Of a stretch of 51,725 nucleotides of DNA, positions 1,720 through 42,219 are shown in pieces. Position 1 is the stretch's first letter; the number at the start of each line of letters is the position of its first letter. The notes below the pieces were generated by a model. That model ran no database searches, was not told the DNA's origin, and saw only the letters and a list, made by a program, of their open reading frames with translations. The position numbers were made by a program, and so were the translations under genes. The stretch is from assembly GCA_905235385.1 (NCBI GenBank), contig CAJOLB010000004.1:6543-58267 (forward strand), read 5' to 3'. Origin of the DNA: an uncultured Alphaproteobacteria bacterium. Lineage in GTDB: Bacteria > Pseudomonadota > Alphaproteobacteria > RF32 > CAG-239.

Positions 1720-1851
1720 GTCAAAGAAAAAGGAACCTTAAATTTTTACGATTCCTTTGAATTAAGTTTATCAAAAATTTATTTAAAAATCAATTAAAAT
1801 GAAATTTCAAAAAGTGTAAAGAAAAAAGGTTCATTTTTTCTTTACACTTTT
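1720..1851. promoter_or_regulatory. Invertible-promoter-like cassette, copy A
   Basis: Inverted repeats gtcaaagaaaaaggaacc (1720-1737) and ggttcattttttctttac (1828-1845). The internal promoter lies on the minus strand: TTGATT (1788-1793 rc), 17-nt spacer, TGaTAAACT (-10 at 1765-1770 rc). It points away from the pilin-like gene at 1866. A perfect 18-bp hairpin (1810-1827 / 1834-1851) lies directly before the RBS. Confidence 0.7.
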
Positions 1852-1865
1852 AAAGGAGAAAACAT

Positions 1866-2453
1866 ATGCAACAAAAAGGTAGAAGTATGGTCGAAATGCT
1901 TGGCGTCTTGGCAATCATTGGCGTTTTATCCGCCGGCGGTTTGGCAGGTTATCATCAAGCTGTTGCAAAGCACCGCTTAAATGTCTGGGGTGAACAGGTT
2001 CAACAAACATTAATGAATTTATACGAACTTTGCAAAGGTGATTCCGAGTGTAATTCTTCTAACAATATTTCTCTGAAAAATATTGTTCCTGAAGGCTTCC
2101 TCAAAAAACCTTACAATAATCGGCTTGGCTATGATATATATGGTAATAGCTGGCAAATGAATCCGCTGGGATTTTCTTTGCGTTTAGGCGGAACGCAATA
2201 TCAACAAAATGAAAATGTCATATCTTTTACCTGCCCTAAACTTCTCGAAATTTTAAAAGAAAGCAGAATTTATCAAATACGCATTTGGTCGCGTTTGGGA
2301 GCGATTTACATTAACTCAACTTCCAACTGTAACGTTTATACCTGTCTGTCTTTTGATGATTTAACAAAAGATAAACTACTCAAAATTTGCGAATCTTTGA
2401 CAAGTGAAGACAATGAAGAAAATGACACGATTTGGTATTTCTATTTTAACTAA
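1866..2453 (+). CDS. Prepilin-type N-terminal domain protein (type IV pilin / pseudopilin-like), paralog A
   Basis: N-terminus MQQKG-RSMVEMLGVLAIIGVLSAGGLAGY has a short basic leader, Gly at -1, Glu at +5 and a hydrophobic helix. RBS aaaggag precedes the ATG. C-terminal Cys motif C-x5-C-x14-C. Confidence 0.7.
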   Translation: MQQKGRSMVEMLGVLAIIGVLSAGGLAGYHQAVAKHRLNVWGEQVQQTLMNLYELCKGDSECNSSNNISLKNIVPEGFLKKPYNNRLGYDIYGNSWQMNPLGFSLRLGGTQYQQNENVISFTCPKLLEILKESRIYQIRIWSRLGAIYINSTSNCNVYTCLSFDDLTKDKLLKICESLTSEDNEENDTIWYFYFN

Positions 2454-8890: not shown

Positions 8891-9126
8891 ACAAAGAACT
8901 CGCAACTTTAGGCATTAAGATTGAAGATTTTACAAAAATTCCCGAAGTCAACACGCTCTTACATCATTTTTCAGATTGTATTATCTGCCGTATGGGTATG
9001 CCTTATGAAAAATTAGGTATTCGCCTGATACATGTTGTGATGGACACACCATCTGCTGATGCCATGCGATTGGTCGAACAGCTCAATGCCATCAAAGGTG
9101 TTTCTTCTCAAACGATGTTCTTTTAG
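8887..9126 (+). CDS. TM1266-family putative iron-only hydrogenase system regulator (ACT/NikR-C-like small protein)
   Basis: 79 aa. The segment VNTLLHHFSDCIICRMGMPY...IHVVMDTP...IKGVSSQT resembles the TM1266 family as I recall it. Its start overlaps the antiporter stop (ATGA). Confidence 0.6.
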   Translation: MNKELATLGIKIEDFTKIPEVNTLLHHFSDCIICRMGMPYEKLGIRLIHVVMDTPSADAMRLVEQLNAIKGVSSQTMFF

Positions 9127-9983
9127 GCTTGTCCGTTTGCTTCTAAAACCTTAACATACTGCATTGTAAAGTGATGCCCTAACTCATGGATAAGCGTTGA
9201 ACGGTTTGCTTTTTTGAACAAGTGTATAACCCTTGAAGCTGGCATATACGAACCAAGCGGATTGTTCTCGCCTTGCTTAAACGTCTGCTGATTTTTCTTG
9301 ACAACGTCAGATTTTTGTAGTATATTATCATTATAGCCTTGAGTTTGATTCCATTCACGCAATTGGAGCGTGGAAACTGCGGTCAAGTTTGAGGCGTTTT
9401 TTGTATCTTCATAAAGTATATGGCTTTTCATCAGCTGTTCAAATAGCTTTTCTTTACCATAAACACTTGGAATCACATTAAAATCTTTATTTTCAGGCTT
9501 TAGAATTGCTTCTACAATATTACCATTTTCATCAACAGCATCCAAAATAGCGACAAGACTTCCCTTTTCTGTGCGTGACTCCATAACAATCACAGGATCT
9601 GCCATAAGTTCAGGTAATCGTTCAAGCACTTTTTGAGAAACAACATGATAACCGGTATTTTTTGAAAGAACCTTTTGACGCATATTAACAGGTTTATTAT
9701 TAAAACCAACCGCCTGATATACTTCCGGTGTTTCAGAATAAACCGGAATCATTGTTTTAACACTCAATTCTTTTCGGAAAGCTCTATTTAAGAAACTCGA
9801 AAATCTTTGAACATCTTTAGCCAACGGCTTAAATAAATTCTTTACGCTGTCCGCCACACCGCTCTGATAATAAATATCCGGATTCTCTTTGCTAAACGTG
9901 CCTTCTTGAAAGAACGGTATATCTTCTTCAGCCTTGCGTTCCTGCTCTTGCGCCTCAAGCCGTGCGTTTTCTTCTTCGGTTAT
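9123..9983 (-). pseudogene. 5'-truncated remnant of a large phage/conjugative-element polyvalent-type protein
   Basis: The frame is open from the TGA at 9984-9986, with no ATG or RBS. The track start at 9857 is an internal GTG. The ORF begins immediately after the ferredoxin terminator. It ends 16 residues after an HELGH zincin motif, so the metallopeptidase domain is cut off. Confidence 0.5.
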
Positions 9984-9994
9984 TCAACATAACA

Positions 9995-10030
9995 AACAAA
10001 AAACCTCAAGCTTTGCTTGAGGTTTTTTAT
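9995..10030 (-). terminator. Rho-independent terminator after ferredoxin gene
   Basis: Stem aacctcaag / cttgaggtt, followed by a T-run on the minus strand. Confidence 0.7.
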
Positions 10031-10049
10031 TTTTGTTTTGTCTTCAAAA

Positions 10050-10289
10050 TTAGTCGTTAGCGTTCGGGCAAACTTTTGCTTGCTCTGCGTTGAACTTAAC
10101 AACTTCAGGATCAGCATCTGCATCATTTGCAATAGCTTCTTGCGGGCATTCAGAAATGCAAACACCGCAGTCAATGCAAACGTCCGGATTAACAACGAGT
10201 TGATTTTCTGCTTCGTGAAAAGCATCAACGGGGCAAACACTTGCACAAGCTTTACATTTAATACAGCTATCATTAACAACTGAAGGCAT
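10050..10289 (-). CDS. fdx: 2x[4Fe-4S] ferredoxin
   Basis: Two CxxCxxCxxxCP motifs (CIKCKACASVCP and CIDCGVCISECP). 79 aa. Confidence 0.9.
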   Translation of the reverse strand: MPSVVNDSCIKCKACASVCPVDAFHEAENQLVVNPDVCIDCGVCISECPQEAIANDADADPEVVKFNAEQAKVCPNAND

Positions 10290-10357
10290 CTAAAATCTCC
10301 TAAAAATGAATTGTTTTGAGATTTCTTTTTAAGCTCTTTTCTTTTAAAATGCAAGTC

Positions 10358-10786
10358 CTATTTTTTAAATTTTTGCAAGAATTGAAACTTATCGACTCCG
10401 TTAATTGTTCCAATCTTTTTATTTGCCATAATGTTTGGAAGCTCTATACATCTGAATGTGCTTCTTTCGTCCGCATTTTCAACAAATGCCGTTACATTTC
10501 CGCTTGCGAACTCAATAAAACGCTCTGACGCTGTTTTCCATATTTCTTTAATCTCATTTGTTGTAACCTCGTTTGTGCCCTGATATCCTTTTTTGCACAA
10601 AGCTTTCCCGCATGGTGTGTCATCAAGTGTTTTACATCCTTTGTGTGCTTTCACATAAGCGTATGCCTTATCTCTGTTTTCTTTCGTCGGCAAAAAGCTG
10701 ATGCTATAAACAACCGCACAATTCGGCTTCGTTGAAACATCAAATTCCTGAGCAATTTTCATGCCTTCTTTAAAATCAACAGTCAT
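10358..10786 (-). CDS. Hypothetical protein
   Basis: 142-aa ORF whose start abuts the stop of the upstream metallophosphoesterase gene. No family recognised. Confidence 0.45.
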   Translation of the reverse strand: MTVDFKEGMKIAQEFDVSTKPNCAVVYSISFLPTKENRDKAYAYVKAHKGCKTLDDTPCGKALCKKGYQGTNEVTTNEIKEIWKTASERFIEFASGNVTAFVENADERSTFRCIELPNIMANKKIGTINGVDKFQFLQKFKK

Positions 10787-19729: not shown

Positions 19730-19799
19730 TTTAATCATCACATACATCAAACATCTCTTTTCCGCGCAAAAACGACAAGCATCATCAAATTTTTAAACC

Positions 19800-19931
19800 G
19801 TAAAGAAATAACCAACCTTTTTTCTTTACACTTTTTAAAATTTCATTTTAATTGATTCTTAAGGAAAATTTTGATATGCTGATACAAAAGGAATCGTAAA
19901 AATTTAAGGTTCCTTTTTTCTTTACACTTTT
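19800..19931. promoter_or_regulatory. Invertible-promoter-like cassette, copy B (orphan)
   Basis: Inverted repeats gtaaagaaataaccaacc (19800-19817) and ggttccttttttctttac (19908-19925). The promoter is on the plus strand: TTGATT 19852-19857, 17-nt spacer, TGaTATGCT (-10 at 19875-19880). No pilin-like gene is adjacent. Confidence 0.7.
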
Positions 19932-20005: not shown

Positions 20006-20530
20006 ATGCTTGGTCGCTATACTTATACCTTGAGTACATTAACCCCCGATGAAGAAATTATTTTAGTCGGTCGGTTGCACTATTTTGCTTTAATCATTCC
20101 CTTTTTCTTAACTGTCACAACTTTCGTATCTTTGTTCTTTTCTATCGGATTTACAATTCAATTAAAAGGTGGAAATATTTTAGATTCGATGAAGATTTTT
20201 GCATGCTGGGCCGTCACATTGACCGTTTTTACCTGCACAATCGTTTCTTGGCTAACGCGCAATTTTATTGAAATGGTTTGCACCAGCAAACGTGTTGTCA
20301 AGCGCACCGGTATTATTAATGTTACAACCGAAGAGCTTAATCGTGAGAGAATCGAATCGGTTGAAATGCGTCAAAGCATATTCGGTCGTTTGTTTAATTA
20401 CGGCGATATTTTCTTTTCAGGCACCGGCACATCAAAATTGATTTTTCACTTTATCAACCAACCGAAACTGATGAAACAGATTATTGATGCGGTGATCAGT
20501 TCACCTCAACAACAGCCTGATGAACACTAA
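20006..20530 (+). CDS. Bacterial PH-domain (bPH_2, YdbS/YdbT-like) membrane protein
   Basis: Several N-terminal TM helices, then the segment VVKRTGIINVTTEELNRERIESVEMRQSIFGRLFNYGDI typical of bPH_2. Confidence 0.65.
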   Translation: MLGRYTYTLSTLTPDEEIILVGRLHYFALIIPFFLTVTTFVSLFFSIGFTIQLKGGNILDSMKIFACWAVTLTVFTCTIVSWLTRNFIEMVCTSKRVVKRTGIINVTTEELNRERIESVEMRQSIFGRLFNYGDIFFSGTGTSKLIFHFINQPKLMKQIIDAVISSPQQQPDEH

Positions 20531-21964: not shown

Positions 21965-22172
21965 TGATATGTCCTTTCTTATTATTCCGTTTTACAATAT
22001 AAACATAAAAATATATTCAATCAAGCAAAATTCTATTCTTATAACGCATGAATTTACAAAAAAGTTCGCTATAAAATTTTTTTGTTACAATTAAGAAACG
22101 ATTTGTGTTTTGATGTTTGTCGTAAAATAACATATTATCGCGTCAGTTTTTAACTTAGTAAAGGAAAATAAA

Positions 22173-26330: not shown

Positions 26331-26951
26331 TTATTTCCGCCACCAAAATTTCAAGCTAACAGATGTGGTGTCATTTTGACTGTGGAAATTGCACATTTCA
26401 AAAATTTTCTGTGTATTTAAATTTCTGATTTTTGAACAACTTTGACAACAACGATCGCCATAATATTGTTTTAGGCGCCTGTTTTCAGATGATGCTGCGG
26501 ATATTGTTTCAAAATAACACAATTCGGAGGCCCACTCTTTTGCTATTGTAAAAATATTTTGGCATTCTCTTAAGGCTGCCTCATTATCATCTTTCAGAGA
26601 AGATAAACTGATATGTAAAACAATATCTTCTGCCGTACTTGGCGAAACCCAGACACGGTTTTTGAAATCATCATACCAATATGTTCCGCTTTCATTTTGA
26701 ATCATTCCTTCCGGAACACTGTGCAACTTTTTAAGTATGTTCATCATACTTGTTTGATTTAAGCCGTATAAATCATTTTGATATTTTGTAATCCCCAGAA
26801 GCAGTTCGTTAATTTGTTCCATTTGTTTATTGAGTTTATGCTGAAACATCGCCTTTGAATAACCTGCTAAAGCACCGACGGATAAGATGCCGATGATGGC
26901 TAAGACGCCAAGCATTTCAACCATACTTCTGCCTCTTTGATTTATTTTCAT
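26331..26951 (-). CDS. Prepilin-type N-terminal domain protein (pilin-like), paralog C
   Basis: MKINQRG-RSMVEMLGVLAIIGILSVGALAGY, with RBS aaggag 7 nt upstream of ATG 26949-26951. The track's N-terminal extension (MLTQSRDD...) starts at a TTG and lies in the conserved non-coding leader. Confidence 0.7.
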   Translation of the reverse strand: MKINQRGRSMVEMLGVLAIIGILSVGALAGYSKAMFQHKLNKQMEQINELLLGITKYQNDLYGLNQTSMMNILKKLHSVPEGMIQNESGTYWYDDFKNRVWVSPSTAEDIVLHISLSSLKDDNEAALRECQNIFTIAKEWASELCYFETISAASSENRRLKQYYGDRCCQSCSKIRNLNTQKIFEMCNFHSQNDTTSVSLKFWWRK

Positions 26952-26969
26952 TTCTATTCTCCTTATAGT

Positions 26970-27006
26970 GTCATCCCTCGATTGCGTCAGCAATCGTCAA
27001 GGGATC
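26970..27006 (-). promoter_or_regulatory. Conserved bulged leader hairpin (copy C)
   Basis: The mRNA sense strand reads GAUCCCU-UGA-CGAUUGC-UGAC-GCAAUCG-AGGGAU. It lies between the cassette and the RBS. Confidence 0.55.
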
Positions 27007-27022
27007 TTCAAATTTTTAAACC

Positions 27023-27154
27023 GTAAAGAAATAACCAACCTTTTTTCTTTACACTTTTTAAAATTTCATTTTAATTGATTCTTAAGGAAAATTTTGATAG
27101 GATTAAATAAAAGGAATCGTAAAAATTTAAGGTTCCTTTTTTCTTTACACTTTT
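27023..27154. promoter_or_regulatory. Invertible-promoter-like cassette, copy C
   Basis: Inverted repeats at 27023-27040 and 27131-27148. The promoter is on the plus strand: TTGATT 27075-27080, 17-nt spacer, TGaTAGGAT (-10 at 27098-27103). It points away from pilin-like gene C. Confidence 0.75.
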
Positions 27155-33032: not shown

Positions 33033-33061
33033 ATTCTATCAGATTTTTATCATAAAATCAA
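33033..33061 (-). promoter_or_regulatory. Candidate sigma-70 promoter of the archaemetzincin gene
   Basis: The minus strand reads TTGATT, 17-nt spacer ending in TGa, TAGAAT. It lies about 20 nt upstream of the ATG. Confidence 0.5.
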
Positions 33062-39199: not shown

Positions 39200-39236
39200 T
39201 CCATCAGTTTTGTTTGATTTCATAGTCAACTTCTTT

Positions 39237-39271
39237 AAAAAAACGAATCGGAATTCCGATTCGTTTTTTTT
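39237..39271. terminator. Bidirectional terminator between rplQ and pilin-like gene D
   Basis: A-run, stem aacgaatcgg / ccgattcgtt, then T8. Confidence 0.8.
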
Positions 39272-39932
39272 AATCTTTAACCCAATCACCAGTTTGATGC
39301 ATCGCTACTCCACACACTTGGTCTCTACAGGTCCTTTCGCAAATATCCAATTTCTCATCCATTGTCAAACTTTCTGCTTTCGGATCTCTTTTGGAACAAT
39401 AGTCTCCACATACAGTTTTCCATGCAAAAGTTTGTGTTGAATTATGAAAATACATGTAATCTGTATTCGCAGCATCAATAAAAAAGTTGATGTATTCAAC
39501 GCAAAGTTCAACGCGGTTTTCTCCTTTTAACGAAACAACTATTCCGATAATTTTTTGAACTGTTGGTGAATTATATCTTACTTCTATTTCGTTTTTCCAA
39601 GCATCTAATACCTTATTTTTTTGTATCATATTTTTTGGGAAAATTCCCATTTTGATTGCCATACTTGTTGTGAAGGTATCAACATCTGTCTTCCCATATA
39701 AAGCTGATGACAAATTCATCCATGCTTGGCTGAAGTTATTGAAAAATTGGTTTCTTTTGTGCTTTTCCATAGCCTTGTTAAAACCTGCTAATGCCCCAAC
39801 ACTTAAAATGCCGATAATCGCCAAAACCCCGAGCATCTCAACCATACTTCTTCCTAAAGATGTCATCCCTCGTTTTTGCATTGCAAAAACGTCAAGGGAT
39901 CTTCTGTTTTTTTTATCTATTCTTCTTTTCAT
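39270..39932 (-). CDS. Prepilin-type N-terminal domain protein (pilin-like), paralog D, with an extended leader
   Basis: The GRSMVEMLGVLAIIGILSVGALAGF core is preceded by a 33-aa basic leader if ATG 39930-39932 (RBS aaggag) is the start. An alternative start is MQKRG at 39879-39881. Confidence 0.65.
   Translation of the reverse strand: MKRRIDKKNRRSLDVFAMQKRGMTSLGRSMVEMLGVLAIIGILSVGALAGFNKAMEKHKRNQFFNNFSQAWMNLSSALYGKTDVDTFTTSMAIKMGIFPKNMIQKNKVLDAWKNEIEVRYNSPTVQKIIGIVVSLKGENRVELCVEYINFFIDAANTDYMYFHNSTQTFAWKTVCGDYCSKRDPKAESLTMDEKLDICERTCRDQVCGVAMHQTGDWVKD
39862..39901 (-). promoter_or_regulatory. Second copy of the bulged leader hairpin, inside the 5' coding leader of paralog D
   Basis: GAUCCCU-UGA-CGUUUUUGC-AAU-GCAAAAACG-AGGGAU. 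The outer stem and bulge match the other copies. The inner stem has a different sequence but still pairs. Confidence 0.5.
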
Positions 39933-39950
39933 TTCTATTCTCCTTATAGC

Positions 39951-39987
39951 GTCATCCCTCGATTGCGTCAGCAATCGTCAAAGGATC
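39951..39987 (-). promoter_or_regulatory. Conserved bulged leader hairpin (copy D1)
   Basis: Nearly identical to 26970-27006 and in the same position relative to the RBS. Confidence 0.55.
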
Positions 39988-40003
39988 TTCAAATTTTTAA
40001 ACC

Positions 40004-40135
40004 GTAAAGAAAAAACGAACCTTAAATTTTTACGATTCCTTTTGTATCAGCATATCAAAATTTTCCTTAAGAATCAATTAAAATGAAATTTCAAAAAGTG
40101 TAAAAAAAATAGGTTCCTTTTTTCTTTACACTTTT
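40004..40135. promoter_or_regulatory. Invertible-promoter-like cassette, copy D (interior flipped relative to copy C)
   Basis: Inverted repeats gtaaagaaaaaacgaacc (40004-40021) and ggttccttttttctttac (40112-40129). The promoter is on the minus strand: TTGATT at 40072-40077 rc, 17-nt spacer, TGaTATGCT (-10 at 40049-40054 rc). It points toward pilin-like gene D. Confidence 0.75.
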
Positions 40136-40337
40136 AAGATTCAAAACACCAAAAAAAACGCCGAGAATGAGGCAAATAAAACACTAACAATGCTTAGGAT
40201 AAGTTAAAGTCATAAAAGTTCGGAGAATAGGTCAAATAGAGTTATTTTCAAGGCGAGCAAAATTTTAGCGTAAATAAGCCTACGTGAATTTTGCGAGACC
40301 GCAGAAAATAGCTCTAGATAACCTGTTATACGAGCTT

Positions 40338-41766: not shown

Positions 41767-41905
41767 GTCGCACCTCTTTGTTCGCAATATAGATATTTCT
41801 TACTATAAATCGGTTTATTTTCAAGTCTTTTGCTTTATCTATACACGCAGATATTTATTTGTGCCGAAAGCACAAACCTTGCCAAGGTTGATCTCGAGCC
41901 TGTTT

Positions 41906-41994
41906 CAATAACAAAAAACCACCTGAAAAGGCAATGGGATGGAGCGCGACATTGCCTTCGGCAACGCTTGCTCATCTCGCTTCGCTCAATTCCG
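41906..41994. repeat. 89-bp repeat unit 1 next to tRNA-Gly
   Basis: Identical by eye to 42030-42118. It starts with caataacaaaaaaccacctgaaaagg and contains the hairpin ggcaatg...cattgcc. Confidence 0.8.
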
Positions 41995-42029
41995 GACCCT
42001 TCGCGGCTTCTCTTACCCATTGTCTGTTC

Positions 42030-42118
42030 CAATAACAAAAAACCACCTGAAAAGGCAATGGGATGGAGCGCGACATTGCCTTCGGCAACGCTTGCTCATC
42101 TCGCTTCGCTCAATTCCG
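42030..42118. repeat. 89-bp repeat unit 2, bracketed by an 18-bp perfect inverted repeat
   Basis: caataacaaaaaaccacc (42030-42047) is the reverse complement of ggtggttttttgttattg (42129-42146). The latter overlaps the 3' end of tRNA-Gly by 2 nt. Confidence 0.8.
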
Positions 42119-42144
42119 CACCTGAAAAGGTGGTTTTTTGTTAT

Positions 42145-42219
42145 TGGAGCGGGCAATGGGATTCGGACCCACGACATCAACCTTGGCAAGGTTGCGCTCT
42201 ACCCCTGAGCTATACCCGC
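42145..42219 (-). tRNA. tRNA-Gly (anticodon GCC), CCA encoded
   Basis: Hand-folded cloverleaf: GCGGGTA TA GCTC AGGGGTA GAGC G CAACC TTGCCAA GGTTG ATGTC GTGGG TCCGAAT CCCAT TGCCCGC T CCA. The T-loop reads TCCGAAT rather than the usual TTCGAAT. Confidence 0.85.

Follow-up and report, generated by a model that had tools for sequence, protein, structure and literature searches.

Invertible promoters are well known, and the cassettes described here bring no new principle to them. In Moraxella, DNA inversion by Piv decides which type IV pilin is made, the inverted segment being a coding sequence of about 2 kb with the recombinase gene adjacent. The fimS element of E. coli, acted on by FimB and FimE, is 314 bp long, has 9-bp repeats and lies beside its recombinase genes, while the RecV recombinase of Clostridioides difficile can act on several switches; in both systems a small promoter or leader element lies directly upstream of a fimbrial or surface-protein gene. 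The Hin/Gin class flips segments of 1-4 kb together with an invertase gene and a Fis-bound enhancer, and at hix an A-tract runs into two G/C pairs beside the central AA. The crossover sites of this class (hix/gix, for Hin, Gin, Cin and Pin) are imperfect palindromes, 26 bp in the case of hix, with an asymmetric 2-bp core that must match between partners for ligation (PMC2427008, PMC4817059). In Bacteroides a single trans-acting invertase, Mpi, serves many promoters (PMC10403206). Several short and scattered capsule promoter segments of B. fragilis share an inverted repeat, lie at surface-structure loci and are all flipped by this one serine recombinase, which is encoded elsewhere (PMC10403206), with the outcome that ON and OFF states are combinatorial and most loci are OFF. 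Invertons of this general kind have been catalogued in thousands, mostly of less than 300 bp (PMC11602134).

The DNA analysed here (the window, a stretch of 51.7 kb with a G+C content of 38.7%) carries housekeeping genes for ClpXP, HtpG, an RpoH-like sigma factor, PPDK, MurA, ThrRS and L17, and its nearest database relatives are annotated as Alphaproteobacteria MAGs. An earlier note on this DNA had proposed a site-specific inversion switch and described four promoter-bearing cassettes of one size. What it states about the sequence was confirmed throughout, and all four cassettes (A to D) measure exactly 126 bp from repeat to repeat:

1720-1845: cassette A; its putative promoter, at 1765-1793 (-), reads to the left, with pilin-like gene A behind it (predicted OFF)
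19800-19925: cassette B, oriented as C; its putative promoter, at 19852-19880 (+), points toward the bPH_2 gene
27023-27148: cassette C, with its interior inverted relative to D; the putative promoter points right, away from pilin-like gene C (predicted OFF)
40004-40129: cassette D; the putative promoter points left, toward pilin-like gene D (predicted ON)

These are short segments with inverted repeats of 18-30 bp at their ends, as is typical of invertons, and together they probably constitute a multi-locus family of invertible promoters served by an unlinked recombinase. The interior 20-mer AAATTTCATTTTAATTGATT occurs four times in the window against 0.25 occurrences expected, a number that none of 100 shuffles reached. 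Querying the genome collection with the promoter 20-mer gave 33 chance matches in unrelated AT-rich genomes and one true relative (L029), belonging to "uncultured Rhodospirillaceae bacterium RUG803", a rumen MAG and the sole genome in the species genome collection to share the element. A metagenome query with AATCGTAAAAATTTAAGGTT yielded one further full cassette (L040), one decayed cassette (L041/L042) and no others, and viral contigs searched with the site sequence gave chance matches only. Cassette length is 126-127 bp across the window, RUG803 (L029 and the near-identical L075) and L040, with the dyad centres 96 bp apart in the window cassettes and 97 bp apart in the other lineages. The cassettes are 86-96% identical as DNA compared with 29-39% identity for the adjoining pilin-like proteins, and this, along with a length that holds to within 1 bp across lineages, fits protein-recognised sites of fixed geometry, being far more constraint than a plain promoter requires.

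In several respects the arrangement resembles that of the B. fragilis capsule promoters, with short and scattered promoter segments, a shared inverted repeat and surface-structure loci, and with one locus predicted to be ON and the rest OFF; the single recombinase encoded elsewhere that flips all segments in B. fragilis is here only proposed. It differs in belonging to another phylum, in its repeat, in the longer palindromic sites of 30 bp, in the 126-bp segment and in adjoining single pilin-like genes rather than polysaccharide operons. For the cassettes, sequence comparison shows the architecture, the conservation and an interior that is flipped while its flanks are fixed; from these we infer the inversion, the enzyme responsible for it and the activity of the promoter.

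The comparison of cassettes C and D carries most of the argument. Their flanks had been described as collinear, and on the gene side 44 of 45 nt are indeed identical when read collinearly, the left flank family (26942-27052 and 39923-40033) having 92% identity over 111 nt, while on the far side 27131-27154 and 40112-40135 share the 24-nt sequence GGTTCCTTTTTTCTTTACACTTTT without a difference. The 90-bp interior lying between these flanks matches at 82 of 90 positions when reverse-complemented compared with 44 of 90 collinearly, so that what had been a hand count of about 82 proves exact. The interiors of B and D likewise match at 87 of 90 positions when inverted. Bases specific to each end stay with the flanks in both orientations, the leader side reading AAACC/GTAAAG and the distal side AAAGT/GTAAAG (the slash marking the border), and the same is true in C and D of the bases before the central AA (CG or CC as opposed to GG) and of the distal ACTTTT, with the interior alone reversed. 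Insertion of a whole element in two orientations is disfavoured, since the outer arms would then have flipped along with the interior and they have stayed put; recombination within the repeats, as originally argued, remains the better account of a flipped interior between fixed outer flanks. Both orientations are therefore seen between the same flanks across paralogous loci (C and B as against D, with the same X leader and distal arm) and not within one locus. The fast-evolving stretch that spans the -10 and the transcription start, GATATGCTGATACAAAAGG, is identical in B and D but stands in opposite orientation relative to the same leader, so that the flip, or an inverted conversion, must be recent. 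No target-site duplications were seen at the cassettes. Remnants of the X leader are present at A, B and L042, and since every copy, the gene-less ones included, retains pieces of this same leader, the duplicating unit is gene, leader and cassette together rather than the cassette alone.

The repeats had been reported as 18-bp inverted repeats; they are present, but each cassette end is better described as a 30-bp palindrome-like site with the consensus GTAAAGAAAAAAGG-AA-CCTTTTTTCTTTAC, readable as 14-2-14 or 12-6-12, in which the similarity between arms reaches about 42 bp. The sites of D and C and the right site of A are as follows:

40004-40033: left 30-bp site of D, GTAAAGAAAAAACG-AA-CCTTAAATTTTTAC, composed of the outer X arm and inner arm i1, with the dyad-centre AA at 40018-40019
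40100-40129: right 30-bp site of D, GTAAAAAAAATAGG-TT-CCTTTTTTCTTTAC, composed of inner arm i2 and the outer Y arm, with the centre TT at 40114-40115
27023-27052: left site of C, X and i2
27119-27148: right site of C, i1 and Y
1816-1845: right site of A, palindromic without a mismatch as 12-6-12 (14-2-14) and directly adjoining the ribosome-binding site

At the right site of D the arm similarity runs on to 40141, while the left site of A is a decayed X arm. Inner arm i1, CCTTAAATTTTTAC(GATTCC), lies downstream of the promoter as part of a 25-nt block, AAGGAATCGTAAAAATTTAAGGTTC, that is unchanged in all seven copies aligned (see below), and inner arm i2, CCTTTTTTCTTTACACTTTTT, lies upstream of the promoter. 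The outer flank X is the pilin leader and ends in ...TCAAATTTTTAAACC/GTAAAG; the outer flank Y ends in AAAAGT/GTAAAG. The junction of i2 with an outer arm can fold to a strong hairpin (at A -19.7 kcal/mol with z = -8, at D -12.2 kcal/mol), and the junction of i1 with an outer arm folds no better than shuffled sequence. The site arms (39992-40033, 40100-40141 and their equivalents) come in two flavours, GAATCGTAAA / AAACCGTAAAG in the X outer and i1 inner arms and AAAAGTGTAAAG in the Y outer and i2 inner arms, with like paired with like in each site of A and D and hybrid sites in B, C and L040. Such pairing of arm flavours could bias the direction of switching.

That the repeat resembles no known site holds at the level of sequence, but its architecture, a palindrome with an asymmetric AA centre, is classical for recombinase core sites. 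The central AA and the CC(T) that follows it are invariant in 8/8 window sites, while the two bases preceding the AA vary among GG, CG, CC and TG. Read as 14-2-14, the sites thus have the design of hix/gix and the form expected for a serine invertase, namely a palindrome in which the asymmetric 2-bp core is the same in both partners. They differ from hix/gix in being 30 bp rather than 26 bp long and appear unrelated to hix in sequence, and whereas the Hin/Gin class flips kilobases together with a gene, the segment here is 126 bp with no enhancer identified; sequence likeness and an adjacent invertase gene do not place it in the hix/gix family, there being no gene in the cassette and no recombinase nearby. 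The 12-6-12 reading, corresponding to the tyrosine-type recombinases of fimS and RecV, is possible, but the 6-bp spacers of the two partners then mismatch at all four cassettes, by one base at D (CGAACC against GGAACC) and at A (GGAACC against TGAACC) and by two at B and C (CCAACC against GGAACC). On account of these mismatches we would favour a trans-acting serine recombinase, comparable to Mpi of Bacteroides. On the leader side, B and C have CC-AA-CC in place of GG-AA-CC. A recombinase dependent on identical 6-bp spacers would be unable to act there, and B and C may for this reason be locked, with their leader-side sites perhaps partly disabled. The two variable bases before the central AA were also considered as a means of narrowing down the crossover point, and this was dropped, the signals of A and D being in conflict.

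The cassette interior carries a putative sigma-70-type promoter, whose function is predicted from its conservation. The element reported in the earlier note, TTGATT followed after 17 nt by a -10 of the form TGnTAnnnT, was found in all four cassettes, on the (-) strand in A and D and on the (+) strand in B and C, and is exemplified by the two copies with oppositely directed interiors:

40049-40077 (-): putative promoter of D, TTGATT, 17 nt, TATGCT, with TG two bases before the -10
27075-27103 (+): putative promoter of C, TTGATT, 17 nt, TAGGAT

Seven copies from at least three lineages were aligned in promoter orientation (the four of the window, L029 of RUG803, L040 and the decayed L042); every one of them has TTGATT-N17-TAnnnT, and the TG two bases before the -10 is present in 6/7. 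The -10 hexamer occurs in six versions (TATGCT, TAGGAT, TAAACT, TATATT, TAGAAT and TATAAT) and sits in the most variable stretch of the cassette, yet its three critical positions (T-A-n-n-n-T) never change. Such position-specific conservation supports the reading of the element as a promoter, to be set against a match to the sigma-70 consensus of only 8/12, at which a generic promoter scan did not flag the site. Elsewhere in the window TTGATT-17-TAnnnT has only three more occurrences, two of them directly upstream of ordinary genes, and this suggests that it is the usual promoter form of the organism. The two lie at 33033-33061 (-), upstream of an M54-like peptidase gene, and at 21996-22024 (-), upstream of a MlaA gene.

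Cassette B has no pilin gene, and A has its pilin-like gene at the end opposite to that in C and D. The genes and leader concerned are:

39270-39932 (-): pilin-like gene D, 220 aa, with the motif GRSMVEMLGVLAIIG
39933-40003 (-): X-type leader of D, from cassette D to the start codon, nearly identical to the leader of C
26331-26951 (-): pilin-like gene C, 206 aa, with N_methyl and TIGR02532 matches at or near threshold
1866-2453 (+): pilin-like gene A, 195 aa, attached to the Y-type cassette end
20006-20530: bPH_2 membrane-protein gene, beyond the other side of cassette B, with its own TTGACA-18-TATTTT site

The true start of gene D may be a later Met, at MQKRGMTS, and its leader contains the hairpin CGATTGC-GTCA-GCAATCG. 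At locus A the pilin-like gene lies at the right cassette end, opposite to C and D, with 20 nt from the cassette to the ATG; the decayed X leader on the other side (1720-1749) is shorter by about 26 nt. At locus B only an X-leader remnant (19781-19799) is left, and the promoter-like site belonging to the bPH_2 gene is better than the promoter of cassette B. The leader-remnant region there (19760-19799) has no gene behind it.

A prepilin-type N-terminus, G/RSMVEMLGVLAIIG with Glu at +5, is present in A, C and D, as in class III signal peptides. N_methyl scores were 17-19.7 bits, below the cutoff of 21.2, while TIGR02532 scored 16.9 bits on gene C against a cutoff of 16.3. In the confident AlphaFold (AF2) model of C (pLDDT 88.7) an N-terminal helix of 52 residues leads into an alpha/beta head, and when compared with the PDB the model gave no match at E<=0.001, its top matches being unrelated (TM about 0.24), such that no pilin-fold head was recognised. 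The family comprises at least 3,900 clusters (3,922 at E<=1e-5), several of which are named as type II secretion or pilin proteins of Alphaproteobacteria. Four conserved cysteines are found in the family.

Only at D does the promoter face its pilin-like gene, and the proposal that D is ON with A and C OFF follows from this geometry of promoter and gene. Intact pilin-like genes with the promoter directed away from them are also found in RUG803 (L029), in the near-identical L075 and in L040, so that of five loci with an intact pilin-like gene, four (A, C, L029/L075 and L040) have their only evident promoter pointing away from it. The maintenance of intact ORFs behind outward-facing promoters argues for their expression at some time. 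In having a small promoter and leader element directly upstream of a gene of this type, the loci are similar to fimS and to the RecV switches, and in having a pilin-type gene under what is proposed to be inversion control they are similar to Moraxella Piv, although here a promoter segment rather than coding sequence would be inverted and no Piv/IS110-like gene was seen.

If the cassettes do invert, a site-specific recombinase encoded elsewhere in the genome would bind and pair both palindromic sites, and strand exchange within their shared core, across a tightly bent loop of 96 bp, would reverse the interior. In one orientation the promoter would transcribe outward via the X-type leader into the pilin-like gene, as at D in its ON state; in the other it would point out of the Y-type end, with C then OFF and A turned ON only by a flip. 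The strong palindrome formed by i2 and the outer arm, which at A and C lies between cassette and gene in the OFF state, may also act as an insulator that blocks read-through. The outcome would be phase-variable, and possibly mutually exclusive, expression of diverse type-IV-pilin-like surface proteins. A point against such a switch is the spacing of the crossover points; at 96 bp it is short, and the DNA would have to be bent strongly.

While the comparative argument supports a site-specific inversion switch, two checks on active switching, by orientation and by recombinase genes, gave no positive evidence. Each locus had the same orientation in every other assembly compared, namely L035 for D, L037/L038 for C, L048/L049 for A and L076-L079 for B, and the RUG803-type locus was in the same orientation in L029 and L075. 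The assemblies number about three to four, possibly derive from one sample judging by their accession names and, as consensus contigs, report the majority orientation only, for which reasons the lack of variation is weak evidence against frequent switching. Searched for domains of recombinases, resolvases, integrases and transposases, the ORFs of the window and the neighbours of the cassettes in L029, L040 and L042 gave none, and no tyrosine, serine or Piv-like recombinase turned up among them. As invertases often act in trans, this result too is a weak negative.

Among the related loci compared, no orthologous locus with the opposite orientation was found. Relatives at 90-95% L17 identity have neither a pilin gene nor a cassette between L17 and MurA and hence offer no orthologous locus for comparison with D, and a pilin homologue (P0045) on 23 contigs, from a different species, has no cassette. 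The content of the L17-MurA interval itself (39200-40337 of the window, compared with L060-L067) varies: the window has pilin-like gene D and its cassette there, the closest relatives (95% L17 identity) have an HNH-domain gene, and relatives at 90% L17 identity have nothing. In sister lineages, genes orthologous to the pilin-like gene of the RUG803 locus occur without a cassette (L072, 9764-10000; L074, 880-1115; L080, 1-252), behind a non-invertible leader of about 200 nt that has a promoter-like site and, immediately ahead of the ribosome-binding site, a hairpin resembling a terminator. This leader could be an attenuator or riboswitch; it had no match in Rfam. L072 and L074 keep ataaagtgtaag, a remnant of the Y-type outer arm. 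In L042 (about 9290-9420) the upstream site is eroded and a TTGATT-17-TATAAT promoter faces a DUF2769 gene, such that this cassette looks like a locked-ON derivative.

The single orientation found per locus, in all three to four assemblies of the same species and in both of the RUG803-type locus, raises the question of whether these are fossil inversions, that is ordinary promoter regions flanked by palindromes (operators or terminators for example) which are now static at every locus. Their occasional inversion over evolutionary time would have come about through rare recombination, homologous or by replication slippage, at the short inverted repeats or through inverted gene conversion among paralogous copies, and genes behind away-facing promoters would be silent or expressed otherwise. 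In keeping with this are the failure to find a recombinase in the window or beside related cassettes, the off-consensus left sites of B and C (CCAACC) and the condition of B, which is clearly a gene-less relic. We nevertheless regard it as unlikely, given that the whole 126 bp, with both sites and the exact length, is kept at 86-96% identity next to genes whose products retain about 30% amino acid identity, an excess for a static promoter, that intact ORFs and leaders persist behind outward-facing promoters at four loci in three lineages and that the interiors of B and D are of recent common origin in opposite orientation.

A small non-autonomous element with terminal inverted repeats, of the MITE, BIME or REPIN kind, that carries a promoter and has inserted either way round near various genes would account for the multiple copies, for the terminal repeats, for orientations that vary relative to the neighbours and for the unrelated genes adjoined (bPH_2 at B and the DUF2769 gene in L042). 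Such an element should not leave its outer arm features fixed while its interior is flipped, as between C and D, since a flip of the whole element cannot yield that arrangement. The lack of visible target-site duplications, the X-type leader remnants at A, B and L042, from which the flanks have travelled along in a spreading unit larger than the repeat-bounded segment, an interior that is not self-complementary and forms no hairpin as in REPINs, and related genomes that lack the cassette at orthologous loci with no empty-site signature bounded by the repeats all make this origin very improbable. There is also the matter of assembly, in that the cassettes are repeats, contigs of other assemblies break in or beside them (L038, L039, L078, L079) and a short-read assembler might have mis-resolved the orientation of a short repeat-flanked multi-copy segment. 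The k-mers and reads used were however far longer than the repeats of 18-30 bp, other lineages too show both orientations, the junctions are locus-specific (AAAAAACGAACCTTAAATT, for example, is found only at D) and different assemblies and assemblers give the same orientation at all four loci; misassembly was rejected on the strength of these locus-specific, reproduced junctions and is scarcely credible.

In the searchable literature we found neither this repeat described nor any promoter inversion at alphaproteobacterial pilin-like genes. The particulars of the family of invertible promoters, the reading that we prefer, are the very small size, the long palindromic sites in two arm flavours, the outward reading both ways and the structurally unplaced pilin-like targets. 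If the reading is correct, multi-locus promoter inversion would operate in an uncultured rumen or gut alphaproteobacterial lineage, and a pilin-like surface protein family that is large and evolves fast would be under its control, pointing to phase variation, antigenic or adhesive, in organisms that metagenomes alone have revealed. The small size and clear palindromic sites would then make the cassettes convenient for finding the recombinase and for studying the inversion of tightly bent DNA. As a precise sequence tag, the cassette lends itself to read-level orientation counts in rumen metagenomes. Taken in all its parts together, the reading would amount to a previously undescribed invertase regulon of uncultured rumen/gut Alphaproteobacteria, in which an unlinked recombinase acts on palindromic sites of 30-42 bp in two arm flavours, flips 126-bp cassettes with 96 bp between crossover centres and so switches outward transcription from one direction to the other, with the result that members of a very large pilin-like family, for the head of which no structural relative has been solved, are expressed in a mutually exclusive way; for this full combination we see the chances as evenly balanced.

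Two further regions of the window are of note. Rfam detected a tRNA in the window and nothing else. Ahead of the tRNA-Gly(gcc) at 42145-42219 (-) stand two direct repeats of 99 nt, at 41900-41998 and 42024-42122 with 98% identity, along with an inverted repeat (42016-42048 and 42128-42160). The repeats contain a stretch resembling the 3' end of the tRNA and may for that reason be the remnants of integration sites. The region 9123-10786 (-) encodes a protein whose C-terminal domain is of the phage MuF type (9123-9857) and, after it, small ORFs of which one gives a weak ADP-ribosyl-cyclase-like match; it could be a toxin-type module.
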